This document shows, in pieces, positions 5,890-28,139 of a stretch of DNA of 64,000 nt. Under the pieces are notes generated by a model. It searched no databases. It saw only the letters and a program-made list of their open reading frames with translations, and was not told the DNA's origin. The stretch spans positions 576,001-640,000 of the forward strand of contig CAXXIN010000007.1 in the NCBI GenBank assembly GCA_963665275.2. Direction: 5' to 3'. The translations under genes and the position numbers were made by a program. The stretch is from Negativicutes bacterium (GTDB lineage Bacteria; Bacillota; Negativicutes; UBA1444). Numbering within the stretch: position 1 is the stretch's first letter; the number at the start of each line of letters is the position of its first letter.

Positions 5890-5917
5890 TACTATCCACC
5901 TCTATAGTAATATTATC

Positions 5918-5931
5918 AGAACATATGTTCT
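5918..5931 (-). promoter_or_regulatory. LexA (Cheo/SOS) box
   Basis: AGAACATATGTTCT (GAAC-N4-GTTC) in the 17-bp spacer of a minus-strand TTTACA/TAATAT promoter upstream of the Y-polymerase operon. Confidence 0.85.
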
Positions 5932-5975
5932 GTGTAAATGTCATAGACTTACCATTTGCGAGCTGGACGGAAATG

Positions 5976-6022
5976 AAAAAAGCCGGCAAAGATGGTCCTC
6001 AAAACCACCCTAGCCAGCTTTT
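5976..6022 (-). terminator. Intrinsic terminator after the recombinase pair
   Basis: Minus strand AAAGCTGGCTAGGGTGGTT..GACCATCTTTGCCGGCTTTTTT, long stem with G-U pairs plus U-tract. Confidence 0.65.
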
Positions 6023-6067
6023 CTTTCACTTCACCCCACTTATAACAACGCCTAGGCTTTTATCTAC

Positions 6068-7486
6068 CTAGAAACTCGTCGCATCACACTCAATCTCCGT
6101 TCCATCAAGCAAGCTAACAATCACTTGCTTCCTGCCAACCACTGTTATTTTCTCTACCAAGGCAAAGTATAGATCAATAACAAACTCGTCAATTTTCGAC
6201 CGGCTCAACACGATCTCTATGAACTGCCTAGATTTATATCGTTTCAGCAGGTTATCGCTTTTCAAACCCTCTTTCCACGTTCCAATAAAATAAGCCTTGT
6301 TCTCAATCATCGCATTAAACACATCAACAAAAGTCTGATACAAAACCCCATCGTCAATATGCTGGCTCTCACATCCTTTTTCACCCTTCACCACATACTT
6401 GCCGTTGCAGCGCCAGACGATCCGTCTGAACCGATCATCGGTTGAATTCCATACTTTTCTGCCATAAGCATGGCCGCAGGAACCGCAAATCACTCGGCCT
6501 GCAAAGGGATTATCCTCTGTCGCACATTCAAGTTTCTGAATGCCATACTTCAGAGCAAAATTCCGACGTCGTTCCATCTCCAGCTGCACCGCTTCCCACA
6601 TCTCCTTGTCGATGATCGCGGGATGACTATCCTCCACATAATACTGCGGCACCTGACCGGTATTGTCCGCCCGCTTTTTGTTCAAGAAATCCACGGTGTA
6701 GGTTTTTTGCAGCAATGCGTCTCCCATATATTTTTCGTTTGTCAGCATTTTTCGGATGCTGTTTTCGTACCATTTTGCTTTGCCATTCCAATTGGGAACG
6801 CGGTCTTTTTCTAGGTCCCGCGCAATTCGATTAGCCCCTTTTCCGTCGAGAAATTCTCTGTAGATACGCCTGACGATTTTAGCCTGCTTTTCATTGATCA
6901 CCAGATTGCCGTTTTTGTCTTTGTCATAGCCAAGGAACTTGGTAGCGTTAATAAAGAGCCTTCCCTGCTCAAACCGCCGCCGGATTCCCCAGGTACTATT
7001 CTCCGAGATCGACCGGGACTCGTCTTGCGCCAGCGAACTGAGAATCGAAAGCAAAACTTCGCCCTTACTGTCGAGCGTAAAAATCGCCTCTTTCTCGAAG
7101 GTCACCCCGATGCCCAAGTCTTTTAGCAGCCGAACAAAGTTGAGGCAATCCAGCGTATTACGGGCAAACCGCGAGATGGATTTCGTAATGATCATGTCGA
7201 TCTTGCCGGCTTTACAGTCTGCAATCATCTTATTGAATTGATCACGTTTTTTTGTGGAAGTGCCGCTAATGCCTTCATCGGCATATATCCCAGCGCACTC
7301 ATAATCCGGCTGCTTTTCAATATAGGTAGTGTAGTAGTTAACCTGGGCTTCGTAGCTTGATAACTGTTCTTCCTGATCGGTCGACACCCGGCAATACGCT
7401 GCTACGCGTTTTTTCTTCGGCTCCAGGTTTTCCGCAAGGCTGGTGCGATTGGGCCTTGCGGGTATAACGGTAATGTTTCTCGCCAT
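6068..7486 (-). CDS. Large serine recombinase
   Basis: AAYCRVST catalytic Ser, ITKSISRFARN, recombinase domain, Zn ribbon CGSCG. Confidence 0.95.
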   Translation of the reverse strand: MARNITVIPARPNRTSLAENLEPKKKRVAAYCRVSTDQEEQLSSYEAQVNYYTTYIEKQPDYECAGIYADEGISGTSTKKRDQFNKMIADCKAGKIDMIITKSISRFARNTLDCLNFVRLLKDLGIGVTFEKEAIFTLDSKGEVLLSILSSLAQDESRSISENSTWGIRRRFEQGRLFINATKFLGYDKDKNGNLVINEKQAKIVRRIYREFLDGKGANRIARDLEKDRVPNWNGKAKWYENSIRKMLTNEKYMGDALLQKTYTVDFLNKKRADNTGQVPQYYVEDSHPAIIDKEMWEAVQLEMERRRNFALKYGIQKLECATEDNPFAGRVICGSCGHAYGRKVWNSTDDRFRRIVWRCNGKYVVKGEKGCESQHIDDGVLYQTFVDVFNAMIENKAYFIGTWKEGLKSDNLLKRYKSRQFIEIVLSRSKIDEFVIDLYFALVEKITVVGRKQVIVSLLDGTEIECDATSF

Positions 7487-8639
7487 ATCTCATAACCTCC
7501 TCGACCATGGTTTCGTTTTGTATATTCAACCTGCTGACCACGGAATCATCAACTGTCGTGCCTTGGCAGGCGTCTTTGCCGTTCTTAACATAGTTGCTAC
7601 ATTGCCAGACGATCTTTTTGCAGGCATGGTTGCTGTTCCATGTCCGCCGACGTAGGGGAGAGCCGCATTTACTGCAAAACAGCAGGCCGGTCAGCGGATA
7701 GCCGGTTTGGTACTTCGCCCGTATTTCTGCCGAGTTCCCTTTAGCCTTTCCGCGTAGTGCAATTTGCCGCTGCGACTCCTCCCACACGCCGCGAGGAATA
7801 ATCGGTGGGTGGTTATTTTCAATGTAATAGCTTTCGATTTCGCCGTGGTTCACGCACTTCTTTTTGCGCAGATGGTCCGCGCTGTAGGTCTTTTGAAGCT
7901 TGGCATCTCCCATGTACTTCTCATTTTTGAGGATGCCCAGGATCGTGCTGGAATGCCACCTACCACCGGCAACGGTTTCTACTCCTTCAGCGTTTAGGTC
8001 TTTTGCGATAACAAAGCTTCCCTTGCCGCCGATATAGTCGTCAAAAATGCGCTTGACCACGCTGGCTTGTTCGGCGTTGATCACAAGTTCCCCGTTCTTG
8101 TTTTTGTCATAGCCGAGGAACCTTGTGGTGTTGACGACAACTTCCCCTTTTTGAAACTTACGCCGGTATCGCCACTTCAGATTGTCACTGACATTTTTGC
8201 TTTCTTCTTGGGCAAAAGCAGAGAGGACGGTCAGCATCAGCTCACCATCCCCGTTACTACTGGATATTTGCTCTTTTTCAAAGAATACTTCCACGCCCAG
8301 TTCTTTTAGTTCCCGCACCAGTTCAAGCACAATGGCTGTGTTTCTGGCAAACCGGGAAATAGACTTTGTCAGGATCAAGTCGAGCTTCCCTGCTCTCGCA
8401 AGCGCCAGCATCTTCCGAAACTCTGGCCGGTCGTCTTTGGTCCCTGTGATTCCCTGATCCGCAAATACGCCTGCGTACTCGTAGTCCGGATTTGCTTCGA
8501 TCAAGCCTTGGTAATACTGTGTCTGGTTTACCAGCGACTCGCCCTGCGCCTCACTGTCTGAAGATACCCTGGCATAGGCGCAGACCCGTTTGCGTTTGGC
8601 TGTCATCGCTGGTAATGGTTCGATGATTCTGACCCTCAT
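7338..8639 (-). CDS. Large serine recombinase (second, tandem)
   Basis: CAYARVSS, TKSISRFARN, Zn ribbon CSKCG; start placed at MRVRII after an AGAAAGGA RBS. Confidence 0.93.
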   Translation of the reverse strand: MRVRIIEPLPAMTAKRKRVCAYARVSSDSEAQGESLVNQTQYYQGLIEANPDYEYAGVFADQGITGTKDDRPEFRKMLALARAGKLDLILTKSISRFARNTAIVLELVRELKELGVEVFFEKEQISSSNGDGELMLTVLSAFAQEESKNVSDNLKWRYRRKFQKGEVVVNTTRFLGYDKNKNGELVINAEQASVVKRIFDDYIGGKGSFVIAKDLNAEGVETVAGGRWHSSTILGILKNEKYMGDAKLQKTYSADHLRKKKCVNHGEIESYYIENNHPPIIPRGVWEESQRQIALRGKAKGNSAEIRAKYQTGYPLTGLLFCSKCGSPLRRRTWNSNHACKKIVWQCSNYVKNGKDACQGTTVDDSVVSRLNIQNETMVEEVMRYGEKHYRYTRKAQSHQPCGKPGAEEKTRSSVLPGVDRSGRTVIKLRSPG

Positions 8640-8769
8640 AGTCTCTGTCCTTTCTATCAACTGTCATGACTATACATCACTCTGCGGCCGGGTTAAGTCA
8701 AGTTAATAGAGCCGATAAACTGCCGAACGCAGGACATTCTTCTAGGATGGCAGAACATTATCAAACGAG

Positions 8770-9498: not shown

Positions 9499-9819
9499 CT
9501 ACAAGATATCCAGATACTTGCTCGCCCCAAAGAGAACGCGCATGATCACAACCTGTTTGCCTACTTCATCGACCAGATAAAATATCAAATAGTTATCCAC
9601 GACGACTTTCCGATATCCCTTAGCTCTAAGAGGTTCTTCAAGTACATACGAACCGGAAAACGGAAATACCGTCAGCCGCATCGTCGCCTTTTCTATTTGC
9701 TCAAACAAATCATCGGCGGCCTTTGCAGCTGAAAGCGTATTGAAAATATAGCCATAGATCGCATCGAGATCTTCTGCCGCTTTCGGAGCAACTCGCACGC
9801 AATACTTATGCTCTGGCAT
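9499..9819 (-). CDS. RelE/ParE-family toxin
   Basis: AAEDLDAIYGYI, FPFSG, YRKVVVDNYLIFY, V.IMRVLFG. Confidence 0.88.
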   Translation of the reverse strand: MPEHKYCVRVAPKAAEDLDAIYGYIFNTLSAAKAADDLFEQIEKATMRLTVFPFSGSYVLEEPLRAKGYRKVVVDNYLIFYLVDEVGKQVVIMRVLFGASKYLDIL

Positions 9820-11242: not shown

Positions 11243-13057
11243 CTACAGGCCTGCAATGTCATTGAAATCTTGCGTGCTTTGTGGCCGAAGTTTTAGACCC
11301 ACTACGCATCGTTCTCCGCTGCTATTCATTGCAAGTTTTACCCCTTTGGTTTTTAATGTTTCACTAAATTTTCTCCGACTAAAAAAACACCTCATCCCGT
11401 TTTTCACTACCCAGTCCCGAAAGTTCTGGAATAAATCAACGGTTTTGGTCTTGATGTTTGGTGCCTCCTCGCAACATTCATCCAACCAATCTGTAAATAC
11501 ATCATTTTCAGAACGATATTCCTGCGTTGCTTGAATCACATCCTCCGGGGGATTCAATCCTTCCTTTTGCCATTGAAGACAACCCTCGACCATCCAGCGA
11601 AGAATGCCTGGCCATTCTTGCCGAAGATTTTCTTTCAGCAGGTTGTCCCGAGCCGCGCCCTCAAATTTCTCCGTGAACGGTATCAGCCTGATTCGACGCC
11701 AAAAGGCGCCATCTTCTCCGCTGGCAGCCGGCTTATGATTGGTCAGTAGACACAGTTTAAACGACGGTGTAAAATCAAAAAATTCACAGTGCAAGAAGCG
11801 TGCTTTAATCACGTCCTGCCCAGTTAACTGCTTTACAAGCGCCATATTCATTTTCCGGCCTTCAATCGTTTCGCTGGCCAACACAAAGCGCGAACCCCGC
11901 AGAGCCGCAATGTCGTTGTTGATGCCTTCATTCCTTTTCACAAGCAAGGTTTCCGCCGGCGTTGTGGTGGCGTAATCCCCCATTATCGACTGAACTACAT
12001 TGAATAACGTGGATTTGCCATTCGCACCCGTCCCCCACGCAATGGCCAGGATTTGTTCTCGACAGTCACTTGTCAAACAGTATCCCAAAAACTTCTGCAC
12101 GAATCGGATTACGCTCGAATTCCCGCCCCCGAGTATGGTATCTGGAAAAATTTCCTCTAAAAACTGTGTGAACCGTGGACACCTTGCTACCGGGTCATAC
12201 ATCACCGGCGCTTGCTTGGTAATCAGATCAGTGTTGTCATGCGGCAACAGGGTTCCACTTTTCAAATCGATGGTTCCATTTTGCACATTGAGCTTCCATG
12301 GACTGCGATCAAAAGCGTCCACTGTGACACTCAATTTATACGAAGCCCCCTCGGCCATGGCTTTCATCCGAACAAGCGCTTCTGATTTGTTGGCATGCAA
12401 AGCAATGGCTTTCCTGTCAGCAGGTTCGGTGGCGGCGGCCGCCTCCGCGTAAATGGATCGAACACATTCAGCAGCCAATTTCATGATCTCGTGCGATTCA
12501 TCCCGTCGCCAGCACCCACCGGAATAAACGAACCAGGATTTAAGTTGTGGACAGTGCAGCACCCGGCCTTGGAACCTTCGGGCGAAACGCGATGCATTGC
12601 CCAGGTCCGTCAAATGTTTCGCCTGACTATATTCAGGATCATAATGCGCCGTTTGTTTTTCCTGTGCCCTTGCAATGGTCATAGCTCCGTAGGTCTTTTC
12701 TCCGTGCTGTTCGTCCCACTTGGGCCGGTATAGCTCCGATTGCCGAAACAATCTGTCTATCTGCTCAGAATCCTGCGTCCAAAAGGCAAGAATCATACAG
12801 AGTGCGGAATCCGCTTCAGATTGGGAAGTGTACCGGTCCGGATAATCCTGCCAACGCCCTTCCCATAAATCCATAAATAGAAAACTGTTGCGCTTGGCCC
12901 CCTGTGCTCTACTTACGATTTCATCGTCCGTCAGAAGATTTCCGTCCCCCTTTACCAGCGATTCATCTTGCGTCGGTGGCGGCTGAGGAGGATCAGCGGC
13001 GAAGATTTTAGCGTAGAATATGTTCAGTACATCCTGCCGGCTTGCAATCTCTTTCAT
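11243..13057 (-). CDS. NrS-1-like helix-bundle domain plus P4/D5-type SF3 helicase
   Basis: SQSEADSALC..LAFWT..IDRLFRQS..RPKWDE, TDLGNA.RF, Walker A GTGANGKST, VKQLTGQD.IKARFL, FWRRI. Confidence 0.9.
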   Translation of the reverse strand: MKEIASRQDVLNIFYAKIFAADPPQPPPTQDESLVKGDGNLLTDDEIVSRAQGAKRNSFLFMDLWEGRWQDYPDRYTSQSEADSALCMILAFWTQDSEQIDRLFRQSELYRPKWDEQHGEKTYGAMTIARAQEKQTAHYDPEYSQAKHLTDLGNASRFARRFQGRVLHCPQLKSWFVYSGGCWRRDESHEIMKLAAECVRSIYAEAAAATEPADRKAIALHANKSEALVRMKAMAEGASYKLSVTVDAFDRSPWKLNVQNGTIDLKSGTLLPHDNTDLITKQAPVMYDPVARCPRFTQFLEEIFPDTILGGGNSSVIRFVQKFLGYCLTSDCREQILAIAWGTGANGKSTLFNVVQSIMGDYATTTPAETLLVKRNEGINNDIAALRGSRFVLASETIEGRKMNMALVKQLTGQDVIKARFLHCEFFDFTPSFKLCLLTNHKPAASGEDGAFWRRIRLIPFTEKFEGAARDNLLKENLRQEWPGILRWMVEGCLQWQKEGLNPPEDVIQATQEYRSENDVFTDWLDECCEEAPNIKTKTVDLFQNFRDWVVKNGMRCFFSRRKFSETLKTKGVKLAMNSSGERCVVGLKLRPQSTQDFNDIAGL

Positions 13058-14148: not shown

Positions 14149-14862
14149 TTAACTCTTTCGCTTCTTGAACGGTTTCAATATGAGTCGTATATCTGTTTGG
14201 ACATCGCGCAAAACGATTTCATCTTCAAGAATCCTGGAGTGGGTTTCCACTTTTTTTATATACCAATCCACAAACACCGTATGCATTTTACCACCCCAAC
14301 CCTGCTCTACGGTTCTCGTGTCATCACCGTAGCCTTCCGCACCTTGCGCAATTTCCCAGGATGCACGATATTCAATTTGAACCTGAGCTGGAATATCAAA
14401 AGGAATACCATATTCCGCTTTATATCTGGCCATAATCCACGAAAAAATCATAGAATCAACATTTAGATCATTTTCATAGAGCGGAGAATCCGAGGCATCG
14501 AGAAATACTTCCCTGCATTTATCGGCAGGCTCGTTTACTTCTGGCTCAGGATAAATCTCCACGTTTCCCTTTTGCCATTTCTCAAATTCAGCAAGGATAT
14601 CGCTCAATTCACCCTCGCAGATTTCGGCGATGAAACCTCTAGCCGCTGCCCTGACTTCTGCCACTTGTTTCATACTGTGGGCCTTCAAAAGGTGCGCCGC
14701 CGCCGCAATTTCCCACTTGGTTTCAGGCGGATATTCGCTCCACTTTCCTCCGGCACGTCCCTTATTTCCTCTTTGCGGCGTGGGAACCAGCCCTGCGTTC
14801 ACCCATCGGCGCAAGGTTTCACAGGAGATGGATGCATTTTGCAATACTTCCTCACGTGTCAT
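14149..14862 (-). CDS. MerR-like HTH regulator with unknown C-terminal domain
   Basis: IS.ETLRRWVNAGLVPTP.R winged-HTH pattern; start placed at MTREE after GAGGG. Confidence 0.65.
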   Translation of the reverse strand: MTREEVLQNASISCETLRRWVNAGLVPTPQRGNKGRAGGKWSEYPPETKWEIAAAAHLLKAHSMKQVAEVRAAARGFIAEICEGELSDILAEFEKWQKGNVEIYPEPEVNEPADKCREVFLDASDSPLYENDLNVDSMIFSWIMARYKAEYGIPFDIPAQVQIEYRASWEIAQGAEGYGDDTRTVEQGWGGKMHTVFVDWYIKKVETHSRILEDEIVLRDVQTDIRLILKPFKKRKS

Positions 14863-14882
14863 TGATATATCCCTCAATATTT

Positions 14883-14938
14883 CAAAACACATTATGTGTG
14901 TTTTGTTTTAATTATATCACTCGCGCTATTGCTGTCAA
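14883..14938 (-). promoter_or_regulatory. Consensus sigma-A promoter with downstream operator palindrome
   Basis: Minus strand TTGACA-16-TATAAT with TG extension (14938-14911); CAAAACAC-N7-GTGTTTTG at 14883-14905. Confidence 0.7.
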
Positions 14939-15047: not shown

Positions 15048-16061
15048 CTAATCGCCTTTTAAATACTTCTTCATCGCTTTGTCAAAATTCGAGATATACT
15101 CTTTATCTTGTTTTTCCCTAAACCTTTCATACTCACTTTGTGCTTTTGTAATGGCTGCCTCATGACTAATTTTTCCTGCATCTTTGAGAACTTCCTGCCG
15201 ATTATACTTTAAGAATTCATCTGTAATATCCAGCCAATCCTTCATGGTCATAATCTGTTCGTTCAATGCCTGAAATTCAGCATAATCAATATACATTGTC
15301 ACTATTCTGTTAAGGCGATCCAGCTCTTTTTCATTGAGGTAATTTTTTGCCACCGTAATATCGCTTTTCAAAATCTTTCCGGCAGGAGATGCTTTCCAGT
15401 TAGTTAGTCCCATTGTCGGGCGTGCGCTGTCAGCTCTATCATGAATTATTTCCGCCGCAGTTTTTCCGGTTATGGCAAAGTGCATTTTATTCTGGACAAA
15501 AGCATAGAATGCCCTCGTTTCCTCTGAACCCGAATTATAATCGCTACTGCACTGTTCAAATACATCGGCAATTTTCTGGTAAGCCCTACGTTCAGAAGCC
15601 CTGATCTCCCTAATGCGCTCTAACAGCTCATCAAAATAATCCTTGCCAAATGGTCTTCCGTTTTTTAGCATCTCATCATTCAATACAAAGCCTTTTAAAA
15701 TGTACTCCTTTAATGTTTGAGTTGCCCAGATTCTAAACTGAGTAGCCTTTATCGAATTCACCCGGTACCCGACTGCAATAATGGCATCAAGATTATAAAA
15801 TTCGACATTGCGTTTTATATTTCTTTCGCCTTCGTTTTGAACTGTTTCCATAACGGAAACAGTTGCATTTTTTTCAAGTTCACCGGATTCATAGATATTT
15901 TTAAGATGCTTAGAAATGGCGGCTTTCTGAACATCGAACAGTTCTCCCATGGCTTTTTGTGTCAACCAAAAATTTTCATCAGTAAAATAAACACTGACTT
16001 TTACTTTGCCTTCATCAGTTTGATAAAGTATTATTTTATTTTCTTTAGATGAATTATCCAC
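15048..16061 (-). CDS. RhuM-family protein
   Basis: WLTQKAMGELF, ISKHLKNIY..GEL, YNLDAIIAVGYRVNS..ATQFRIWAT, DYFDELLERIREIRASER; GTG start after AAGGAG. Confidence 0.9.
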   Translation of the reverse strand: MDNSSKENKIILYQTDEGKVKVSVYFTDENFWLTQKAMGELFDVQKAAISKHLKNIYESGELEKNATVSVMETVQNEGERNIKRNVEFYNLDAIIAVGYRVNSIKATQFRIWATQTLKEYILKGFVLNDEMLKNGRPFGKDYFDELLERIREIRASERRAYQKIADVFEQCSSDYNSGSEETRAFYAFVQNKMHFAITGKTAAEIIHDRADSARPTMGLTNWKASPAGKILKSDITVAKNYLNEKELDRLNRIVTMYIDYAEFQALNEQIMTMKDWLDITDEFLKYNRQEVLKDAGKISHEAAITKAQSEYERFREKQDKEYISNFDKAMKKYLKGD

Positions 16062-16361
16062 CGTTCGACCTACTCCTTTCCTCGTTCTCTTGCAAAAGCT
16101 GCTTCTAATTCCACTATACGCCTTAAACACGGCATCTTCCGCACTCTGGCAGAAGATGATATCGAAACAATCAAGGCGAAAGACACGATTGCCAGCTGCA
16201 TATCGGCCACGAATCTCTATAATCCTAATCCTTATTCAGCGGGCTTCTTACCTTCAACATGATGCTCCCTTTGCGTGCCACACGGGCTAACATCAATACC
16301 CCCCGAGGGTTATTCGGCCGCTCTCTTGTTGCTGTCATAATTTGCGTAACTCAGGGCAACT

Positions 16362-17201
16362 TCACCAAACAAACGATTCTTCTGGGATGTTCGTAATAAC
16401 CAATTCTTTACCCTTAACACTGACTCTGGCGTTATGCTGAATATCGTACCCAGTCACCATGTACTGTTTATAGATATCCCTTATTAGATCGCAGTCATCA
16501 TAAGTAATAATCCACGGAATATCCCTAAGGTGTTCGGTTATAACCTGCTCAAGATTTCTGTGATCAGATTCTTTGAAGTAATTTGTATATAGCCGGCTCC
16601 CTTTAACTACGTATGGAGGATCAATATTTAAGAAAGCAGTATCGTTTGGGAAGTCTAATTGGTTAATAATCAAATCACTGGCATCGTAGTTATACAGCGA
16701 AATGCGATCCTCTAGCAAAGCAATATCCGTGATTTTCCTTTTTATCTCTTCCTTATTGAATCGACAATCCAGCTTATATTCGCCTTTCTGCATCAATCCG
16801 CCAATTGAGCCGCCTTTGATGATGCCAGAAAAGTTCACGCGATTTAAAAACAATGTTGCGAAGCCATCGCTCAAAGCATCTGCAGCACTGTCTTTGTACA
16901 CTGCCTTTTGTTTCTCTCGTTCATCAATTGTGATGGGCGTATCTGTAATTTTTCTAAGCAAATCGTCGGTGCTGTAAAGCACGGAATGCCAAAAATGATA
17001 TATATGCGAATCGAAATCATTTAATACAACGGATTGCACAACGTTATCGCATAACAAACCAATCCCTATTCCAAACCCTCCCGCAAAAGGCTCAACATAG
17101 GTTCTATCGCCCAGTGAATTGGTTTCAACAAGGTGCTTAACCTTGTCATAGATTTTTGATTTTCCGCCTGGATAGCGAAGCGGCGAAAGCGATTTAGCCA
17201 T
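16362..17201 (-). CDS. DNA N6-adenine methyltransferase (Dam/D12 class)
   Basis: SPLRYPGGKS, YVEPFAGG (motif I), LFLNRVNFSG, DPPY (motif IV). Confidence 0.92.
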   Translation of the reverse strand: MAKSLSPLRYPGGKSKIYDKVKHLVETNSLGDRTYVEPFAGGFGIGIGLLCDNVVQSVVLNDFDSHIYHFWHSVLYSTDDLLRKITDTPITIDEREKQKAVYKDSAADALSDGFATLFLNRVNFSGIIKGGSIGGLMQKGEYKLDCRFNKEEIKRKITDIALLEDRISLYNYDASDLIINQLDFPNDTAFLNIDPPYVVKGSRLYTNYFKESDHRNLEQVITEHLRDIPWIITYDDCDLIRDIYKQYMVTGYDIQHNARVSVKGKELVITNIPEESFVW

Positions 17202-17204
17202 TGT

Positions 17205-20200
17205 CTACCTCTCACACACCAGATTTCTGTATGTCATAAACGCATTAGGAAGCCAATCCGACAAATCATAAGGATTCAAGTATATCTTTGTCCTTGTGTT
17301 ATCGAGTTTCTTCCGTATCGCAGGTACAACTTTAAAGTCGACTGAAGGATTAGGTTGAGGCGTGCCGATGTCCTCTGATATCAGCTTCCTCAGTGGCACG
17401 AGATACTTTTCTTGTTCGCTGTCATCGTATTCGTCTGGCAACTGCCCATATTGAGAATAGTCGAGAAGCTGCAGCCCTAAATGTCTGTCGAAAAATTGGT
17501 GGTTTCTCTGATTCCAGTAGTTGTCCAGACAATTCTTACAGGAATGCGAGCATTCACATTCTGAAAGAATGCTCCTTGCCCTATCGAGAACCTTATCAAG
17601 AATTGAGCCTATCAGCGATGAGTATCCCGCGCCGCTTGTGAGGTTGTCATAGAAGAACATTTCAATGTGCGATTTTCCGTCGCTCTTGATTCTCGGACGC
17701 CAACCGCCGCTGATTTCATTATAGTCAATGTCCAAGACAAGCGAAATAGATTTCTTGAGTGCTTCGTGCAAGGTTGTCACGGCCGCCCTAAGTATGCTTT
17801 TTTCTTCTGCATTGCTATTACCAATGAGTTTGGATGAGTCGTAAAAAATGTCCAACATAAACATATCCGTCAAAAATTCATACCCCAAATAGATACCAGT
17901 AGTGACAGTCCCCTCGTGGCGGCATAGTGGACGGCTATCGTGGTATGGTTGCGAGAAAGAAAATGCTCCTGAATTTGTGCCTGCAACCTCTGCACCGCCG
18001 CATTTCCTGCAAACATTGAAACCGTTCTTGCTTTTCCCCATGTTCACGGTCAAGACTTTTCGGTCAGGAAGATTGGCGAAGCGGATATTGCTCCGCCCGA
18101 ATTCTTCCATCCGTATGTCTTCTGGAACATAGGAATAATACGGAGCCTCCGCATAGGTGTATTGCTCATCTTCATCCTCGAACTTTACCTCATCGCCTTT
18201 GACGGGTGAAAAGCCCCAAGGCCGCAGCATTTTATTCTTTACAATGGGCACGCCACAATACGGACAAACTAATTGGTGTGAATCCTCTTGCTCCAAGCCA
18301 AACCAGTTGCACTCAGAACAAACGTAGATATCTTTATAATAGTCCGTGTTTTTGAAGTAGAATTCGGCCTGATTCGTTTCAAAACCTCTCGGACGAGGGT
18401 TGGCATAGAGTCCACCGCTCTTGAATTTTTTCTTGTCAATCGTTACAAAGCGTCCAGGGGCATATTCACTGAGGGCGACGGCGATATCCCGCTCCGGCGC
18501 ATATTGAATATCTCGCGGTGCGTTCCGTCCGCGTTCAGATTCCTTCTCAATGAAAAACCTAACAACATTTTTGGGGAACGAGTACGACGGAATAAAGCCT
18601 TCACGGTAAAAGACATCAAATGCAGGAGTTTCTTTGTCGTTGTTAATGTATTCATCGCGTTTGCCTTCAGCTAAAACTCTTTGGCATATTTTGCGGAAAC
18701 GAACAATGGTCACATCAGTAGATAATTTTGATGATTTCGCAAATGTTTCCGCAAATTCAATGAAATTTTCACTGTACAGTTCGCAGAACGATATTATACC
18801 TATGTCAACGATGCCGTCAAATTGGCCGCTCATGTCCGGTGTTGACATAAACCCATTCAACGCCAGCATATTGACATGACGTTGCTTTATTTTCGGATTA
18901 TCCCGGTCAATCCACGGCTTGCGCGGCGAACCGGAAATCATCTCGTCTGGATGCAAGAAGTAATGACTGTCGTGTGTTCCTCCCGAAGCGTATGTTACGA
19001 TCGTAGAGATTCCTGCATTCTTACGTCCAGCACGTCCTGCTCTTTGCTGGTAGTTTTCTCTCATAGGCGGTATGTTGCGAAGGCCGACAGCGGTTAAAGA
19101 GCCTATATCTATACCTACTTCCATAGTTGTCGTGCAACTTAAAACATCAATTGACTCCTCACCTTTTTCGCCTGCATTGATGTCTTGGAAGCGCATTTCA
19201 TACTTTTCTGTACGGCTCCAAGTATCACTGCGGATTTCTTTATGGGAAAGTTGCGCAGTATGTTCTTCAGTGTTTATTGTGTGAATGCTATCGATTTTAC
19301 TTAAGGCATTGAGAACCGGAAGGCGCCAAAAATCAAAGCGAGATAAGTCGGATTCGCCGATTGCCACTAAGTCCGTCGATTCAAAACAAGCACCGCAATA
19401 TTCGCCAATCTTGAATGGAGACAATTTCCCGCACCTAACACAACGAAACCATATGATGTCTTTGTCAGCAAACTTAATTTTTACCGCACGCAGCTTGATG
19501 TGGAAGCGACCAACTGAAGAGGAAGCGAAAAACAGGTCACGCACCTTATCGATGGTTTTTACTAAAGCGGTATTGTCAAGACAAAGGCGCTCTTGAATTC
19601 GTTGGAGGAATGTCTTATCCAGTGCGGCTGCGAAGTCAAAACTCAATCCGAATTCATGTGCTTTACTGCGTCCAGGCAGGCCCTTTCTAACATCATCTGG
19701 AATTGTTTCTCCCAAAGCTGCGCTGTCGTCCATTACATCCCAGAATAGTAACACAAGCAGCTGATAAAGGGTACTATTATCAACGCCGATTCCGGCGTCC
19801 TCTAATAAATCATCCACACAATCATCAAGTTCTTTTTGCATAGGGGCTAAAAAACCGATACCTATATCCTTGAAAGAGCGTGGACTTTCTGTGAAGAAAG
19901 TAAGCAACTGCTCATAGTAATCTTCAGGCAGCGACTGATATTCAAAGGCAATCGCCGAATAGTTAATAGATTTTCCTCGCCGTTCCGCTCTATTTTTTTC
20001 AATGCTGAATTTTCGTTGGTCATCTCTGAACTTATTTTTGCTTGTCCCGCTAAAGAAAGATAGGTTGTTTTGGATACAGACATCCAAGAACGCGGGGTAA
20101 AGATCAAACAGAGAGTGTTCATTTCTGTCGACTTGTAGTAGCAGAGATGCAAGCATAACCGCCTGGCGGAATGCGTCTGCATCAGATGATTTTGACAAAT

Positions 20201-22436
20201 CCAAGGCTAATTTCGCGGCGTTTTGGCGCGAGTCGGAGAACAACAGAACCTTCTTCCCTTGATTAATTAGTTCTGACTTCGGAAGTTTTGGCGGCTGAAG
20301 TTCAAACTGCGCTTTTGTAAGATTGTAGAATGGCACATTGCCTTTTGTTGATAAATCCACAGGCTTCTTCAAAGGCATTGATTTTTTACACTTGGGACAA
20401 ACGCCAAAGTTGAACGACTGCGACTTCGAGTCAAATTGATTGCTATAGACAACGGCGAGCAAGCTTTCATCGTCGTGGGGAGACGCATAGAGTTTTCCCG
20501 TCAAAGGGTCAAGTGCACCGATTTTATCATTCTTTTTTTTCTGATAGTTTTTAGGAATTACATAGAGCAACATCTCTTCAAGAGAATTTGCATCGCCATT
20601 TAAGCCTCGTTGCGGGAATACATACCAATAGGGCTGTCCTTCGATTTTCTGCAAGAAGACGCGTAGATACAGTCCACCGCACTTAATGTGGTTAACTAGC
20701 TCATATATCCTTCCACCACATGAGCAGTTATCTCGCGGCATTGAGATAATTTTACCAAGAGGGAGTTTCTCGCTTACAGAATATTTTGCGCAGGTGCATT
20801 GGGGGTTAGAACATGCATATAGCCCTTGAATCCCTCGCAAGAACATATGAAGACGCACGGGGAAAAGAACATTTCCATCTTTCGCGGCAAGTGCCACCAA
20901 CGCTAATAGAGCGTCGAGCGCTTTTTCGGCATTAGAAGCATCGCCAAATATTATGTTCTTTATCTCATTGTATGACTTTGCGCCATCACGACACAATCGA
21001 TTCAATTTGACGAAAGCTTCGTATTGGGGGAGGTTGTCGTTAAGCCATTCTTGTGCTTGAGATGGGCTGATATCTTCCGGCAAATCATAACGGAAAACAG
21101 CTGTAGCGAAAGCCTTAATTCTGTTGGAAACTTCTTCACCTTGAACTTGATCGGAGCCAAGTGAGGCTAACGCATCAATATTTATCTTAACCGCATACTC
21201 TTCAGATATATGGTCTTTTGAGCCGACCAAAAACTCACAAAAGGATGCGTTCTTTCCTGTGAGCCCTGTGTAGAAGTCATTTATCGCAGTTTGCTCGCCT
21301 TGGGGCATACTTGCAGTAGTAAGGATAAACTGAACTCTATCCTTTGAAATCCCCAAACGGTAAAACAGACGTTCCAACAAGAGCGCGATTTCTCCACCGG
21401 CAGAGCCGCGATACATATGCGCTTCATCCAAAACTATGAGGAGCTTGTTATCCGCCGATTCATCAAGCCATTCTTTTGTCTTATCCCAGATGTTGGCTTC
21501 ACGCTGGCGCATGAGCATATACTCCAACATTGAGTAGTTCGTAATCAAGATGTCCGGCGGACACCCCTGCATCTCAAAGCGAGTAATGTACTCAGCGTCG
21601 TAAGGCGATGGGTTGTGAATGTTCTTCTCAAGATTTTCAACGAAAACTTGAAGTCCGTTTTTTCCATATCGGGCAGGGTATTTATTGATGCGCTTTAACC
21701 CACCTATGTTGTTGGTTTGCCTCCTTTGCACATCTTTATCGGCAGTTTCGTCAATTAAATAGTTTTCTCGAAAAGTCGCAGCCAATTCGCGGCTACTTGC
21801 AAGTTTTGCATCCCCGGAGTAAGGGGTTCTGCCTGTATACATCCCGAAATGAGGTATCCTTGTTGCCTGAGTATCTCTCATGAAAATGTCTTTGAACTGT
21901 TCACTACCGATAATTTTTCTAAATCTGGCCAATTGGTCGGAAACCAGAGCATTCATTGGATAAATGATGAGCGTTCGCACCGCTTCCTTTTTGAACGCTC
22001 TTGAACGATTTTTCGCTTCTCCGAAGCATTTAGCAATAATTGGCCAAAGGAAACATTCGGTTTTACCTGAACCGGTGCCGGTTGAAACGAAAAGGTCTCT
22101 GCCTGACAGGAAGAATTCCAGTGCCTTAACCTGATGTTCAAACGGGTCAGGGAATATTCCGAGATTCTCTTTAACAAGTTTTAGCAGAGAATCTTTTACT
22201 CCCTGTTCAATCTGCTGGGAGTTCCTGATCCCATCAACTATTTTCTTGTATGAAGCCGAAGTTTCAATGTATGGTTCGCGCGCAATGTTCGTATGCTCTG
22301 AGCATAGTTCCCCCAGAAGGTCATCGACATACAGCAACAGCGTTTCGCTGTTGGCCAAATAGTCGGACTTTATGTAATTCTCCAGCCTGTCCCTAATAGA
22401 CTTATAATATTGCTGAACCCCGTTTGAGCTATTCAT
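17205..22436 (-). CDS. Large SF2 DEAH helicase with C-terminal DUF1998-like domain (DruE-like)
   Basis: [67 protein letters not shown], several CxxC pairs, terminal [11 protein letters not shown]. Confidence 0.9.
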
Positions 22437-23445
22437 CCACGCAGCCTCCCTTTACCTCGATGCCGATGTTGGTAAGCGCAGCAATTGCTTCCCGCAATAA
22501 GTCATTCCGTATCAAAAAGTTGACCTTGTCAAAAGCATTGTTCTCAGGCCAAGACAAAAGCAACAGGTAGTAGTATTCACGGTTGGGCAAGTGTCCCCCT
22601 ATTCTTATTTTTGAATACTCCTCGTCTTGCTTTGCAATGGTGGCTTTAAGGGGCTTTCCGTAATGCGCTTTTAAGGCAAAATACAGCCGCCTATACTCAT
22701 ACGAGGTAAAGCTGTCGTTCTGCGGTTCAACAGTTTCTTCAGCAAATTGCAGGGCATCGTCCACCAACATAACCCTATAAAATGGACCAATTTCACTTTT
22801 CCGAGCTACGGTGCAGTCTGTTTCCATCTTTTTCCCCCAAGACTGCGACGGAACATTGTTTGATTGGGGATTAAAGAACTCAAGCTCGGAAAGGCTGATG
22901 TCTCTGTCATAGAAATCTATAGAGTCAAACCGTGATTGAAAATACATTTCACGAGTTAAGTCGTCTCTAATCATAAACTCTTTCACAAAAACTCTGTATG
23001 CTGTGGGGCTTAAAAAAGCGCCTAGTCCGTTAACATTATAAGCTGAATTGGGCACTCCAAAGAACAACGCTGTATTCCCAAGCGGCAAGCTTCGCCCGTA
23101 GTTGGCTATTCGGTTGCGGTTACTGTTATCAGTCAGAAGATAACCAGTTTCCTCGTAGACCCTCCTGATGTGAACAGGGAAGTTCACCAGTTGATTTCCG
23201 GTGTCAATGAATCTTTCTGAGATAGGAGGAAACAATTCCACAAACCGCGCCATCAAGTCATTCAGCACGATTGTCTGGTTATGCTTTGTTGTTCCGATAA
23301 CGCCGCCCGATAAATTTTGCGCCGTGCAAAGGCACCACTGTCCAAGAGCTGAGTAGCAGAGCCTATAAACAAAGGAGTCTTCGGATTCGCCGCGAAAACT
23401 GCTGATGCCCATATCTGATGACATTGTGGTTAACAAATTATTCAT
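22429..23445 (-). CDS. Hypothetical protein, DruD-like in position and size
   Basis: 338 aa from the ATGA-coupled start at 23445; overlaps the helicase start; C-terminal [14 protein letters not shown]. Confidence 0.7.
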
Positions 23446-25031
23446 CCCGCAAACCACCGCCTGAACAGATTCTTGTATTGACATCTTCCGGCATCTCCGG
23501 AATACTTAATCAACCGCTCGGACGTGTTATAAGGTGCAATCCGCATTACATCCACGCAGTAAGGTAAAATGTCGAATGCCAGTACACGGCATAAATCCAT
23601 TTCGGAGGATACATAAATGCACTTATGCTCGACCAAACTTCGACGAAAACCAAACTCGCTAAGCATATCTCTGAGCGATTGAGAATACCGTGTGCCCGGC
23701 AACACACATTGAAGGTTAGCCTCTTTTTCCTCGACCGTTGATGGATCTTCCGTTAAATCGGCATTGCCCAATAACGCTTCAATGCGATTAAGATTAAGAT
23801 AATGGCAATACCGCAAAAATTCTTCAGAAATATAGTATAAAGTTCTATCATAGGCGACCGTTAAGAAAATAATTTTATCCCTATGACGCTCAAATAGCGG
23901 TAATAGTTCAGTTTCATTAAAACTTCCGATGAAGTTATCCAAGCAAACAACGCGCCCGTCAATCGATAAGAATTTTTCTACATCTTGCGCCGAAAGGTCT
24001 TTGCAAAATGCAAGTGTCCTCACATTTGAAGTCGATACTAGCGCATTCGCGATGCACTTCATTAAGATCATGCCCACGCCCCGATTTATAACTACAGGTA
24101 CCCCTTGAAACAGGGTACAGCACAGATGCTCTTTCAATATGGCAAAGTATTCTGAGTTGCTTGGTACACCTAAGTTCTCTAAGTTGTATCCCAAATAATC
24201 CTTAAACTCATCCATATTATTGGGGCATTTTGGCTTTACAGCAGCTTCTTGTTGGGCTGCTTTGATATTTTGCTGTTTTTTCAATTCAGCTCTGATTTGG
24301 GCTTCAATTTGTTTTTTGCTGTCTATTATTTCTGTCAATTCTTTCCTAAGTTGCTGTATAATTTCTTCTCGATCATGTATTTTGGATTTGAAAGCCGCAA
24401 TTGATTCTTCGTTGCTTTGTATGGCGGCGCTCATTTTTTCAAGGCTTGCATTAGTACGTTTAAGGTCCTTAATCTCAGATGAACACTCATTAAGCTTTGT
24501 ACCAGTTCTAAACAATTCTAATTGAACATTTTCAAATTGTCCTTGCAACTTCTTTATTTCAGAAGCTTTGTCTTTTATCTCATTATCGAACTTCTCCCGC
24601 TTGCCATCGGAATCTTTAATAGCCTTTACTGCCACACTCAATAATGCAATGAATTCTTCCGAGTACTCTTCATTGACAAGTTTGAGAAACAAACCGATAT
24701 TGTCCGCAAAGAAACAGTTCGGCAATGTATGCAAAAGCGCAGCTTCTTTGCTATCGCCATCATCTATTCTTTGGGTTATGCATCCTTGAATCTCCTCCAT
24801 CCACCTACTAATATGTTTTTCAATGAAGGACGTGATAAAGGGCTGGTTGCGAAACCTATAGAGCAATGTATTTACTTGCGCCTGATTTTTCATGCTTGTT
24901 GCGCGGAATCCGGGCATAACTTTTGCGAAGTCTTTCGGGTAATGCTTGAAATAGCAAACCGATTCTTGAAGCGGGATTACTGAGCATATATAACGCACTT
25001 CGTCTTCGGTAAGTTGAGGAAGATACTTCAT
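23442..25031 (-). CDS. Hypothetical coiled-coil protein with possible degenerate ATPase domain (DruB-like)
   Basis: Long central heptad-rich region; VVCLDNF Walker-B-like; ATGA overlaps on both sides. Confidence 0.7.
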   Translation of the reverse strand: MKYLPQLTEDEVRYICSVIPLQESVCYFKHYPKDFAKVMPGFRATSMKNQAQVNTLLYRFRNQPFITSFIEKHISRWMEEIQGCITQRIDDGDSKEAALLHTLPNCFFADNIGLFLKLVNEEYSEEFIALLSVAVKAIKDSDGKREKFDNEIKDKASEIKKLQGQFENVQLELFRTGTKLNECSSEIKDLKRTNASLEKMSAAIQSNEESIAAFKSKIHDREEIIQQLRKELTEIIDSKKQIEAQIRAELKKQQNIKAAQQEAAVKPKCPNNMDEFKDYLGYNLENLGVPSNSEYFAILKEHLCCTLFQGVPVVINRGVGMILMKCIANALVSTSNVRTLAFCKDLSAQDVEKFLSIDGRVVCLDNFIGSFNETELLPLFERHRDKIIFLTVAYDRTLYYISEEFLRYCHYLNLNRIEALLGNADLTEDPSTVEEKEANLQCVLPGTRYSQSLRDMLSEFGFRRSLVEHKCIYVSSEMDLCRVLAFDILPYCVDVMRIAPYNTSERLIKYSGDAGRCQYKNLFRRWFAG

Positions 25032-26467
25032 ATCCGCCCCTCCATGATAAATTGTTTTGCGGCCGAGTTTATCAAACCATACGATTCACATTTTTCTATG
25101 TATTGAAAAGCGATTTCACTGAGATCGCATAAATCAAAAACATCTGCTGTGAAAGGTTCTGTTCGCCTGTAATGAGAGATCAGGTCGTTGAGCAACTGCT
25201 CACCAATCAATTCATTATGTTGCCGAGGGTAAATACAACCGTCAAGATAGCTAAACATATAGCGCCTTATTACACATCCCGGAAATAGTGAAATGGACTG
25301 TCCTTTGCTCACAGGCGTAACGCCGGAGCGGCTGAACAAGTAGTGTTTGCTGTCATTCGACACATTATATACGCTTTCATATCTTTCCGCTATTTGAAAG
25401 TCGTCAAAGCCGATAGAGTGTTGTTCGCCCTTGGCAATTATAATCTCGACATTATTTTTGCACACTTTTGTTTGTGCCTTAACCGACACTCTTGAAATAC
25501 TACTTGAAACCTTCTCAATATCTTCGGAATGGGCATTTATATTGCCGTGAGCTTGCAGTGCAAAACTCGAATACAAAAAGACGTTATTGGATTCGATTAC
25601 TGCAACGTCTTCGACCTGTACCGCCGGCGGCCATAATAGGGTCAGCGTTTCGGAGGCTTCTAGCTGATAACCCCACGCTGCCACTAATGAATCCATATAG
25701 GCAGTCTTGCTCTTGAATATCAAATTTTTACCTAAAAAATTCCTTCCCATCGTTTGGAATTGAAATGTTTCATCCACTTTAATCTCGTTTGGCAGGCTAC
25801 TATCATAAGGTATCGAATATTGGCTTTGAAATGCAACGAAATATTGCACATTTGTGTACAACACAGTACTGCGAACCAGCTTTGCTTTATAGTTTTCATC
25901 ATTTCCTTGTATCTTAAAAAAAATGGGCGCATTGGTATCGAAAGATCGAAAAACCTCGTACTTCCGTTTAATCCCATTAAAAGTGTTCGATAAGAAATAA
26001 TTATGAGAGAAACGCATAATGTAAATCGGCGTGGGGGCATTTGGTGCAAAATTCTTATGGTTAATCAGCAATGAATCAAAAGGTTGTTCTTGAGCAGAAG
26101 CCCTCAACTCAAACCTAGTTGATAACTGCTCATAAGCAATTATCTCATCATCGCTAAAACTAAGTCCCAGATAAAACATCTTGGAACGCTTGTCAAAATA
26201 AAATTCCGCTCTCTCATTCTTGCTTTTCCTCGAATGTGGTTCTGTGCTTATTGCGCTGTATTGCCCGAGATAATCTTCACATCCTACATCATTGTTGCCG
26301 CTACGATGCCTAAAATGCGGAATCATGCTTATGCTTCCCACAGCAGCAATGCGGACTTCCTCGCCGCAATGAGCGCACTCGTAACGATACCGTTCCAGAC
26401 CACCACTTTGGGCGGCCAACTCCGCAGATACTTCGGATTGAAGAAAAGTATCATACGCCTTTCGCAT
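25028..26467 (-). CDS. Hypothetical protein with N-terminal zinc finger
   Basis: YECAHCGEEV..PHFRH..C motif; start placed at MRKAYD after GGGAG. Confidence 0.7.
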   Translation of the reverse strand: MRKAYDTFLQSEVSAELAAQSGGLERYRYECAHCGEEVRIAAVGSISMIPHFRHRSGNNDVGCEDYLGQYSAISTEPHSRKSKNERAEFYFDKRSKMFYLGLSFSDDEIIAYEQLSTRFELRASAQEQPFDSLLINHKNFAPNAPTPIYIMRFSHNYFLSNTFNGIKRKYEVFRSFDTNAPIFFKIQGNDENYKAKLVRSTVLYTNVQYFVAFQSQYSIPYDSSLPNEIKVDETFQFQTMGRNFLGKNLIFKSKTAYMDSLVAAWGYQLEASETLTLLWPPAVQVEDVAVIESNNVFLYSSFALQAHGNINAHSEDIEKVSSSISRVSVKAQTKVCKNNVEIIIAKGEQHSIGFDDFQIAERYESVYNVSNDSKHYLFSRSGVTPVSKGQSISLFPGCVIRRYMFSYLDGCIYPRQHNELIGEQLLNDLISHYRRTEPFTADVFDLCDLSEIAFQYIEKCESYGLINSAAKQFIMEGRI

Positions 26468-26738
26468 TCCCGCAACACTCCCATTCAATAAAATGATGGT
26501 TAGAAATTGCCAGCTTTCTCCAGCGTTTTGTAAGTCAAGTGGGGAGAAAATTACTGTACTTACCATTATTTACTCTTCCATACTTTTCCGCGAATCCCTC
26601 CCAAATTCCGCCAATTTATCGATTTTCGCGTATTCGTAGACCCCGGGGGTCGGAAAAATCGCCTGAACCTAAGTCCAGGCGAACATAAATCTAACCTATT
26701 CGAAATACCCCAAGGCCGCGAAGCCTTATTATTCGCGC

Positions 26739-28139
26739 CTACTGCTTCTCTATCAACGCTATGCACTCCACATGATACGTCTGCGGAAACATGTCGACAG
26801 GCTGGATCTCGCTTGCCCGATACCCCATCGGTTCGAGCAATGCCAAGTCTCTGGCCAAGGTCGCCGGATTGCAGGACACATACACCATACGAACCGGTGC
26901 CATCTCTGCTGCCGTTCGCAGAACAATCTCGTCACAGCCAGCCCGCGGTGGATCGAGAACAATCACATCGGGGCGAACCCCTGCGTTCTTCAATTCAACG
27001 ATTTTTTCCGCCACATCTCCGGCGATGAACGAAACATTGCCAATTCGATTGGCCGCCGCATTACGTTCGGCGTCAGCCACAGCTGCTGTCGAATATTCAA
27101 TCCCATAGACCTCTGCAGCGCGTTCCGCCAGAAATAAGCTGATTGTCCCTGTGCCGCTGTATAGGTCAAACACCGTTTCACTGCCGGTAAGCTTAGCTTT
27201 CGCAACCGCCTCTTCATATAGAACTTGCGTCTGGATAGCATTCACTTGAAAAAAAGACTCTGCAGAAATTTGAAAAGAAAAATGTCCAATTTTATCGTGA
27301 ATTACTGGCGCTCCCCACAAAACATGCGTTTCTTTTCCGAGAATCACGTTCGTTCGGGCGGAGTTGATATTCTGCTGGATGGACGTCAATTCCGGCATCG
27401 CCGCCTTCAGTCGTCGGACCAGTTCCGCATTTCCCGGGAAATCCTGCGTTGCCGTCACCAGCACCGCCATTACTTCTCCGGTTGCGATTCCGACTCGCCC
27501 CATAACATGGCGCAAGACACCCTGCCCGGTTTTTTCATCATAGGGATGGACACCGACTGCCGCGGCAATCCGGCGGACTTCAACCAGCAATCGATCATTG
27601 AGCGCATGCTGAATCAGGCAGCTTTCCGTCGGGACGATTGCATGACTCCCCGCAGCAAAACAGCCGGCGACGATCTCCGATCCACTATATCCGACTGGGA
27701 ACTGCGCCTTGTTCCGATAACGCCAGGGTTCTGCCATTCCCAGAACGGGGTTGATTTTTACGTCCGTCAATTTACCGATCCTCTGTATCGCATCCTGCAC
27801 GGACTGAAATTTTGCCGACAGCTGCCCAGCGTATGAAAGATGCTGCAACTGACAGCCGCCGCAAGCCTCATATACCGGGCATGGTGGAGTGACCCTTTTG
27901 GAGTCGGGCTGTTCAACGCGCAGCAATCGTCCCCGTGCAAAATTGGCGCGCACTTCCTCGATCACGACCATCACCGTCTCACCTGGCAAAGCATAGCGGA
28001 CAAAAACAGTAAAGTTTTCGGCTCGCCCCACGCCTTCGCCGGAGTGGCCCAATCCGGTAATCGGAAAAGTATAAGTCCGGCCGAGTTGAACCGGTCGGAC
28101 TTTTTCGTTTGAATTCAGGAATTTTCGATTGCGGGACAT
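26739..28139 (-). CDS. rlmD: 23S rRNA m5U1939 methyltransferase
   Basis: TRAM domain, CGGCQLQH, YRNK, SFFQVN, DLYSGTGTI, LDPPRAG, YVSCNPATLARD, DMFPQTYHVE. Confidence 0.95.
   Translation of the reverse strand: MSRNRKFLNSNEKVRPVQLGRTYTFPITGLGHSGEGVGRAENFTVFVRYALPGETVMVVIEEVRANFARGRLLRVEQPDSKRVTPPCPVYEACGGCQLQHLSYAGQLSAKFQSVQDAIQRIGKLTDVKINPVLGMAEPWRYRNKAQFPVGYSGSEIVAGCFAAGSHAIVPTESCLIQHALNDRLLVEVRRIAAAVGVHPYDEKTGQGVLRHVMGRVGIATGEVMAVLVTATQDFPGNAELVRRLKAAMPELTSIQQNINSARTNVILGKETHVLWGAPVIHDKIGHFSFQISAESFFQVNAIQTQVLYEEAVAKAKLTGSETVFDLYSGTGTISLFLAERAAEVYGIEYSTAAVADAERNAAANRIGNVSFIAGDVAEKIVELKNAGVRPDVIVLDPPRAGCDEIVLRTAAEMAPVRMVYVSCNPATLARDLALLEPMGYRASEIQPVDMFPQTYHVECIALIEKQ

Follow-up and report, generated by a model that had tools for sequence, protein, structure and literature searches.

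The locus of interest is a five-gene operon in a 64,000 nt stretch of DNA from a Negativicutes bacterium (assembly GCA_963665275.2, contig CAXXIN010000007.1, positions 576,001–640,000 of the forward strand). This whole stretch is called the window below, and all coordinates are positions within it unless they are given for a related locus. The genes druB', druC', druD', druE and mtase lie co-oriented on the minus strand between 16362 and 26467 (Table 1). They are predicted to form a defense operon and to represent a separate branch of type I Druantia that has been transferred widely, one in which the DruA protein is missing and a D12-class (Dam-like) methyltransferase (MTase) is conserved.

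The five genes are tightly packed. Two junctions are 4 nt overlaps (druB'/druC', 25028–25031; druC'/druD', 23442–23445), the third is an 8 nt overlap (druD'/druE, 22429–22436), and druE and the MTase gene are separated by a 3 nt gap (17202–17204). A pattern scan for terminators revealed nothing terminator-like between druE and the MTase gene on the operon strand. At the upstream end, a hairpin belonging to the core gene rlmCD is predicted to part that gene from druB'; the distance between rlmCD and the longest druB' reading frame is 172 bp. Two of the gene starts were placed inside longer frames: (i) the longest druB' frame is 25028–26566, the PADLOC DruB model aligns from residue 34 of that frame, and a start at 26467 gives 479 amino acids (aa), and (ii) the longest druD' frame is 22429–23484, the PADLOC model aligns from residue 14, and a start at 23445 gives 338 aa.

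Single proteins were assigned to families with PADLOC models, Pfam and NCBIfam, the PADLOC scan covering 14 window proteins and the best 25 families for each. DruE matches the PADLOC model PDLC00013 (DruE1) at 1958 bits over residues 2–1739 of 1743, and the models for other types at 612–635 (DruE2), 526 (DruE3) and 586 bits (DruE4). It contains the Pfam domains DEAD (100–178), Helicase_C (1082–1139) and MZB/DUF1998 (1557–1637), together with a GSGKT motif, a DEAH box at residue 337 and, within the MZB region, a C..C pair; it is predicted to be a superfamily 2 (SF2) helicase of the YprA/MrfA family whose zinc domain is of the MZB (DUF1998) type. Solved DruE chains of type III Druantia match the window protein at 1e-76 and 7e-70. 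The C-terminus of type I DruE has been described as an inactivated Vsr-like domain (PMC12458937).

The three upstream proteins are less readily classified. DruB' matches PADLOC PDLC00003 (DruB1) across the entire model (E 4.3e-206, positions 1–477 of 477); no Pfam or NCBIfam family matched it, and NCBIfam likewise names neither DruD' nor RhuM, a protein encoded next to the operon. Residues C31, C34, H54 and C63 of DruB' are invariant in an alignment of 32 sequences. Its AlphaFold2 model (predicted local distance difference test score, pLDDT, 82.9; predicted template modeling score, pTM, 0.59) returned only immunoglobulin (Ig)-like beta-sandwich proteins in structure searches (Foldseek TM ~0.1; VIA Z ≤6.1). 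The modeled architecture is thus an N-terminal Cys/His zinc ribbon, an array of Ig-like beta-sandwiches and a small C-terminal helical domain. DruC' has weak PADLOC matches at the level of coiled coils (JetC 6e-7; LmuB 9e-6; the canonical DruC model PDLC00006 2.3e-4), and its scores against SMC and Rad50 models are far under the cut-offs. It is predicted to comprise a central coiled coil (residues ~126–314, where the matches to the SMC, JetC and Rad50 models lie) and a conserved, globular C-terminal half. The latter (23442–24250, minus strand) carries three strongly conserved features: FQG-P, a hydrophobic stretch ending in D, and IIFLT. These motifs may represent a nucleoside triphosphatase core that lacks a P-loop, and this half of the protein may be a counterpart of CnuB, the inactivated McrB-like protein of type II Druantia. 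The nearest ESM Atlas clusters to DruC' are unnamed, with the named AAA and AAA_5 clusters, at 0.81–0.83, serving as leads only. DruD' matches PDLC00008 (DruD1; E 1.6e-160) and yields a confident model (pLDDT 89.3, pTM 0.88). Foldseek against the PDB retrieved nothing for it at E ≤ 0.001, and the ESM Atlas gave no usable match. VIA-align aligned residues ~17–150 with winged-helix proteins at Z 4.5–5.9, where the guide value for noise in this tool is ~8, so that a winged-helix-like N-terminal part is suggested with low confidence.

The fifth protein, the MTase, scores 74.1 bits against Pfam PF02086 (cut-off 22) and 62.3 bits against the NCBIfam Dam subfamily, under the cut-off of 114.85. Its best PADLOC match is PD-Lambda-5_B (7.9e-102), followed by MTase_II (4e-81). 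The DPPY motif (D194–Y197) and the S-adenosylmethionine-binding motif E-PFAGG-G (E37, F39–G42, G44) are invariant in all 29 Dru-linked sequences, the window's included, and the enzyme looks active on this basis. It is the only member of its family in its own genome. No nuclease family emerged in the operon or its neighbors with Pfam or PADLOC, bearing in mind that restriction enzymes often escape family models.

These results bear out most of a first-pass annotation of the same DNA. The gene arrangement that it described, with its overlaps and 3 nt gap, agrees in every checkable detail, as do its readings of the proteins: an SF2 helicase with a DUF1998-like end, a zinc-finger protein encoded by the first gene, a coiled-coil protein encoded by the second, a Dam-class MTase, and, at the level of family models, no separate restriction nuclease.

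Linkage of the methyltransferase to druE

An alignment of DruD' homologues, obtained in a search that returned 519 proteins at E ≤ 0.001, was searched against contigs from one genome per species, giving 37 related loci, each from a different species. Two DruD' peptide patterns were the seed of the locus scan, and its sample is confined to loci that bear DruD'. The hosts belong to Bacillota, Bacteroidota, Thermotogota, Spirochaetota and other phyla. The order of the dru genes is conserved: tblastn with the window proteins recovers druB', druC', druD' and druE in the same order wherever the contig permits. Median identity to the window proteins is 76.9% for DruE, 62.3% for DruD', 49.7% for DruC' (conserved in 32 related loci) and 47.8% for DruB' (over 31 relatives). 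By this measure, DruB' appears to be the most variable and fastest-evolving protein of the operon.

The presence of an MTase could be assessed in 31 of the 37 loci, namely those in which the druE 3' end and at least 1 kb beyond it are present; five loci that do not extend beyond the druE 3' end (L018, L020, L022, L033 and L038) and one in which druE is cut (L003) were left out of the count. An MTase of the same family occurs in 28 of these 31, and so the association with the helicase that was first noticed in a single genome holds among its homologues. In 26 loci the MTase gene follows druE in the same orientation, beginning 6–17 nt past the last aligned druE codon in 16 cases and 44–493 nt past it in ten. 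In two others (L012 and L016) it lies upstream of druB', and in three (L023, L026 and L037) it is missing. The flanking mobile elements vary from locus to locus while the linkage between the dru genes and the MTase stays.

The MTases fall into two groups, one of 17 sequences that includes the window's and one of 12. Mapping the MTase state onto a tree of DruE (with two sequences from DruA-type loci as the root, which a very long branch parts from the window's clade) requires seven changes, against a mean of 14.1 when labels are shuffled; none of 200 shuffles gave a count as low. Since kin share labels, this low count is best taken as clustering and not as proof of co-evolution. Given the difference between the two counts, the MTase seems to have been mostly inherited with the operon, with a few replacements and moves.

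Comparison with known defense systems

Type I Druantia, reportedly described by Doron et al. 2018, is said to consist of DruA-DruB-DruC-DruD-DruE. The window operon resembles it in three respects: (i) its DruE belongs to the PADLOC family DruE1 (1958 bits, compared with 2300 bits for the DruE of Ralstonia plasmid pUW163a), (ii) three co-oriented genes of similar sizes lie upstream of druE, and (iii) it is carried by a mobile element. It differs in that a D12 MTase follows druE and no DruA was found in its own assembly. The latter absence, already noted in the first-pass annotation, holds for the models PDLC00001, PDLC00002 and PF14236 across an assembly that is 92.6% complete; the same search was positive for both DruA-type plasmids used as controls (2/2). 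PF14236 matches do occur in three of the 37 related genomes (G001, G022 and G025), none of them at the dru locus. In the MTase-less genomes G022 and G025 the possibility of a DruA encoded in trans was considered and rejected, because the match examined in each lies on another contig and is a DUF4338 domain joined to a DDE_5 transposase.

Five plasmid loci with a DruA or DUF4338 protein beside DruE served for comparison: Ralstonia pUW163a (L039), P. putida pKF715A (L040), Nitrosococcus pNWAT01, a Halalkaliarchaeum plasmid and Meiothermus pMtWR-220. No annotated MTase lies within 8–9 kb of any of the five, in PLSDB gene tables that are incomplete. The window DruE is 33.6% identical to that of the Ralstonia plasmid, and its best plasmid matches reach ~33% (tblastn; 41 records, all <60%), with no member of the window's clade among these 41 records. 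A distant-mode DNA search of E. coli complete genomes with 3.9 kb of druE returned nothing. Beyond DruE, the two kinds of locus match different family models: the Ralstonia proteins match PDLC00005 (canonical DruB), PDLC00006 (DruC) and PDLC00009 (DruD), whereas DruB' and DruD' match PDLC00003 and PDLC00008.

The resemblance to a type I locus claimed in the first-pass annotation is upheld by the DruE1, DruB1 and DruD1 models, which match end to end. Its description of a new defense system went too far, as PADLOC already holds type I models, made for this very clade, that cover three of the five genes. In the literature searched (supplementary tables apart), no description turned up of a variant combining DruB–E with a Dam-type MTase.

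Type II Druantia consists of DruM-DruF-DruG-DruE with a cytosine methylase, and type III of DruH-DruE. Both share a DruE-family helicase with the window, and type II also couples its helicase to an MTase. However, the window DruE scores far lower against the models of these types than against DruE1, its MTase is of the D12 class and thus unlike the cytosine methylase of type II, and the DruF, DruG, DruH and DruM models gave no match among the best 25 families per protein for the 14 window proteins. The parallel originally drawn with the type II cytosine MTase does not apply to a helicase that scores 635 bits against DruE2 and 1958 against DruE1.

Two further comparisons concern the pairing of an MTase with other machinery. 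By analogy, the operon is like BREX and DISARM in combining an MTase with a large helicase or ATPase machinery and no classical restriction nuclease, and DISARM DrmA/DrmB belong, as DruE does, to the YprA helicase family (PMC12458937). It is unlike them in having no PglX- or DrmMI-type MTase, BrxC, PglZ or DrmC; the matches to DrmA and BrxH models are weak and at the helicase level only, and the MTase is small and Dam-like. With PD-lambda-5 the operon shares the MTase family and carriage by mobile elements; here, however, the partners of the MTase are druB'C'D'E. PD-lambda-5 of E. coli has been described as a compacted restriction–modification (RM) and abortive infection (Abi) system that needed an mrr-deleted host (PMC9519451; Vassallo et al. 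2022).

As side observations on DruA, two metagenome-assembled genomes (MAGs) encode proteins in which a DruA-type DUF4338 domain is joined to a transposase domain, DDE_5 (L041, 520–2577; L042, 1033–3108). DUF4338 has been described as a GNAT-like domain (PMC10853773). The phage Mu Mom model PF25680 matches DUF4338–transposase fusions at 2.7e-5 and 0.015, below its cut-off and as a lead only; against the canonical DruA plasmids (n=2) it gave no match even at E ≤ 10.

Function of the methyltransferase

The MTase is conserved and coupled to druE in a clade without DruA, while DruA-type loci lack an annotated MTase; the most plausible reading is that it serves for self-marking, as an integral module of a type-I-like Druantia machine. 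Overall, we consider it rather probable that the operon is a widespread, horizontally moving variant of type I Druantia whose Dam-like MTase marks host DNA. The DPPY motif favors adenine, and the predicted mark is most likely N6-methyladenine (m6A). According to one report, E. coli cells with a DruA–E type I Druantia, and only those cells, gain m6A at CAGCTGNC (10.1101/2024.04.14.589459); as far as that account goes, the responsible gene is not named because no methylase domain is present.

The working that we infer for this branch, from complex formation through self-protection by the mark, and the base modified, to anti-phage activity, would be as follows. The MTase would modify a short motif throughout the host DNA, most likely to m6A. 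DruE would act in a complex with DruB' (zinc ribbon and Ig-like domains), the coiled-coil protein DruC' and the conserved DruD', and this complex would load onto incoming, unmarked DNA and use ATP-driven unwinding or translocation, and no dedicated nuclease, to block replication of that DNA. DruB' would be the best candidate for a sensor or specificity subunit, as it appears to evolve fastest.

Several findings weigh against this reading. The only solved chain that matches the MTase, and hence its nearest solved relative, is M.CbeI (PDB 7M6B, E 1.6e-15), an N4-cytosine methyltransferase (PMC8616854), on account of which adenine is only a tentative choice for the modified base. The three loci that lack an MTase have intact druB'C'D'E, with no MTase in ~7 kb upstream or ~4.7 kb downstream. 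Close members of the MTase family in the respective MAG assemblies (L023, L026 and L037) number zero, one weak match of 44.5 bits, and zero. The mark may therefore not be obligatory, and the m6A self-marking suggested in the first-pass annotation is likewise tentative. Moreover, in L012 (3750–6352) the MTase upstream of druB' is followed by a 591 aa OLD/PtuA/GajA-like ATPase, and the two may be a separate PD-lambda-5-like pair beside a dru operon that has no MTase of its own. Homology to canonical subunits is also slight. DruB' shows no similarity to canonical DruB by blastp or by hhalign against the single Ralstonia sequence (a weak test). DruC' has none of significance to Ralstonia DruC (hhalign E 0.21, single-sequence template), whose position and coiled-coil character it shares. 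DruD' is weakly linked to canonical DruD through its C-terminal part (blastp 6e-5 across 53 residues; PDLC00009 1.2e-4), with hhalign against Ralstonia DruD giving a marginal E of 0.016 over the C-terminal 85 columns. Consequently, the label "type I" rests on DruE and PADLOC naming and not on demonstrable homology of all subunits, and results obtained with Druantia in E. coli may not be transferable to this branch. Neither family models (DruB', DruC' and DruD') nor fold searches (DruB' and DruD') brought out an effector or nuclease, and no anti-phage experiments on this clade turned up in the literature searched.

The same observations give some room to other explanations. The MTase might be independent of Druantia—an orphan, or the remnant of or partner in a PD-lambda-5-like RM+Abi pair, perhaps together with RhuM—and would then do no more than cluster with druB'C'D'E in defense islands. 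Its best PADLOC match (PD-Lambda-5_B), the RhuM gene (PADLOC candidate PDC-S05) directly downstream of it, the RhuM homologues in three of the 37 related loci, the arrangement in L012 and the three intact loci without an MTase all point in this direction. Yet the position directly after druE on the same strand in 26 of 31 loci, within 6–17 nt in 16 of them, is hard to reconcile with independence, as are the absence of RhuM from 34 of the 37 loci, the persistence of the linkage among differing mobile elements and the agreement of MTase subtype with the DruE tree. Furthermore, PD-Lambda-5_A gave no match among the best 25 families per protein for the 14 window proteins, and among the nine neighboring open reading frames of the window no other conserved partner was found at the same depth. 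We consider an independent MTase unlikely. There is similarly a small chance that the enzyme serves the mobile element, as an anti-restriction or epigenetic function that shields the element's DNA on entry into new hosts, or gene regulation by tuning expression, with restriction by DruE being independent of methylation. This would be in line with type III Druantia, which is reported to act independently of host methylation (10.64898/2026.05.13.724758) and to add none, types I and II being the ones with methyltransferase accessory modules (10.64898/2026.05.12.722862). The mobility of the operon (see below) and the three loci without an MTase would fit such a role. Against it, the MTase is tied to the druE 3' end and not to recombinase or transfer genes, in unrelated elements too; the five DruA-type plasmid relatives have no annotated MTase; and type I Druantia is reported to add an adenine modification to host DNA (10.1101/2024.04.14.589459).

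A relic that is inactive or in decay seems a very improbable explanation of the locus. Decay does occur among its relatives: in L003 (3636–9210) druE breaks off at residue 1470 and an asparagine synthase gene comes next, and in L015 (9198–13146) an internal deletion fuses druD' (to residue 295) with the druE C-terminus (from 1259), with the MTase retained. In the window, however, all five frames are open and full length relative to models and relatives, the catalytic motifs of MTase and helicase are intact, and translational coupling is preserved.

If the MTase does mark host DNA for a type I variant, DruA and the MTase may be alternative self-marking modules, which provides a testable idea on DruA function. 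A bolder version, which we put forward tentatively and think less likely to be right than wrong, is that the clade is an epigenetic system of its own, sharing only DruE with canonical Druantia and with an interchangeable modification module in which the MTase takes the place of DruA. Were this true, DruA itself would be the DNA-adenine-modifying enzyme of canonical type I, and the non-homologous DruB', DruC' and DruD' would constitute a new kind of restriction machinery, one that reads the mark and does without a nuclease. In either case, the branch carries an ordinary, recognizable MTase, keeps it across transfers between phyla and is missing DruA, and so offers a clean genetic handle that may help to show how type I Druantia tells its own DNA from foreign DNA. 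The variant is worth testing because this self/non-self question becomes directly approachable. There is a practical point as well: annotation pipelines that require DruA may under-call the variant, and may label its MTase as an unrelated RM or PD-lambda-5 fragment.

The island and neighboring features

The operon occupies the cargo slot of a mobile island, as the first-pass annotation had placed it. In a genome of the same genus (G044), homology to the window ends at position 6048 and starts again at 26563, the stretch between them being replaced by 11.7 kb of unrelated DNA, and a DruD' model found no match in any of 60 relatives (11 from the same genus, one from the same family and 48 from the same class). 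On these grounds, the operon is cargo on an integrative island of ~20.5 kb with serine recombinases. The G+C content of the island is 0.38–0.47, compared with 0.49–0.56 in the flank on the rlmCD side (27–35 kb).

Table 1. Positions of the operon genes, the island and the surrounding features in the window
Feature	Position	Strand	Remarks
druB'	25028–26467	-	479 aa with the start supported by the family model
druC'	23442–25031	-	529 aa
druD'	22429–23445	-	338 aa
druE	17205–22436	-	1743 aa
D12-class (Dam-like) MTase gene	16362–17201	-	279 aa; 3 nt past druE
Strain-specific mobile island	6049–26562		homology break relative to G044; operon at the rlmCD-proximal end
Terminator-like hairpin of the upstream core gene rlmCD	26659–26682	-	10 bp stem with 6 G-C pairs, then TTTTT
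RlmCD-type gene	26739–28139		upstream of druB'
RhuM-family gene	15048–16130	-	PF13310, E 1.6e-109; PADLOC candidate PDC-S05
MerR-like gene	14149–14892		downstream of RhuM
D5_N/NrS-1-type primase gene	11243–13057	-	
ParE-type toxin gene	9499–9819	-	
Two overlapping tandem large serine recombinase genes	6068–7486, 7338–8660	-	

Downstream of the MTase gene, the order is RhuM, the MerR-like gene, the primase gene, a helix-turn-helix gene, the ParE-type toxin gene and the two serine recombinase genes. Upstream of druB' lie the core genes rlmCD-like, gatB, gatA and ligA. RhuM homologues in related loci are found upstream of druB' (L002) or after the MTase (L005 and L013), and RhuM may be an accessory that the operon carries occasionally. 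Before the MerR-like gene, at 14911–14938 on the minus strand, there is a perfect match to the sigma-70 consensus (TTGACA-16-TATAAT with TG).

Other carriers and insertion neighborhoods are seen among the related loci. Tn7-like TnsD/TniQ and TnsE–C genes lie just upstream of druB' in L004 (4762–5514) and L006 (3184–6706), and the operon in these two genomes seems to ride on a Tn7-like transposon. In L011 (3609–4946), an RlmCD-type gene that is 39% identical to the window's lies ~2 kb upstream of druB'. Finally, the Y-family polymerase (IMS) gene beside the island (window 4467–6048) shares 93.6% DNA identity with its counterpart in L048 (4118–5698), from the same genus, and the rlmCD-side flank is only ~75–83% identical to a same-genus genome; the identity of the IMS gene may point to a recent exchange of this gene or of an adjacent element.

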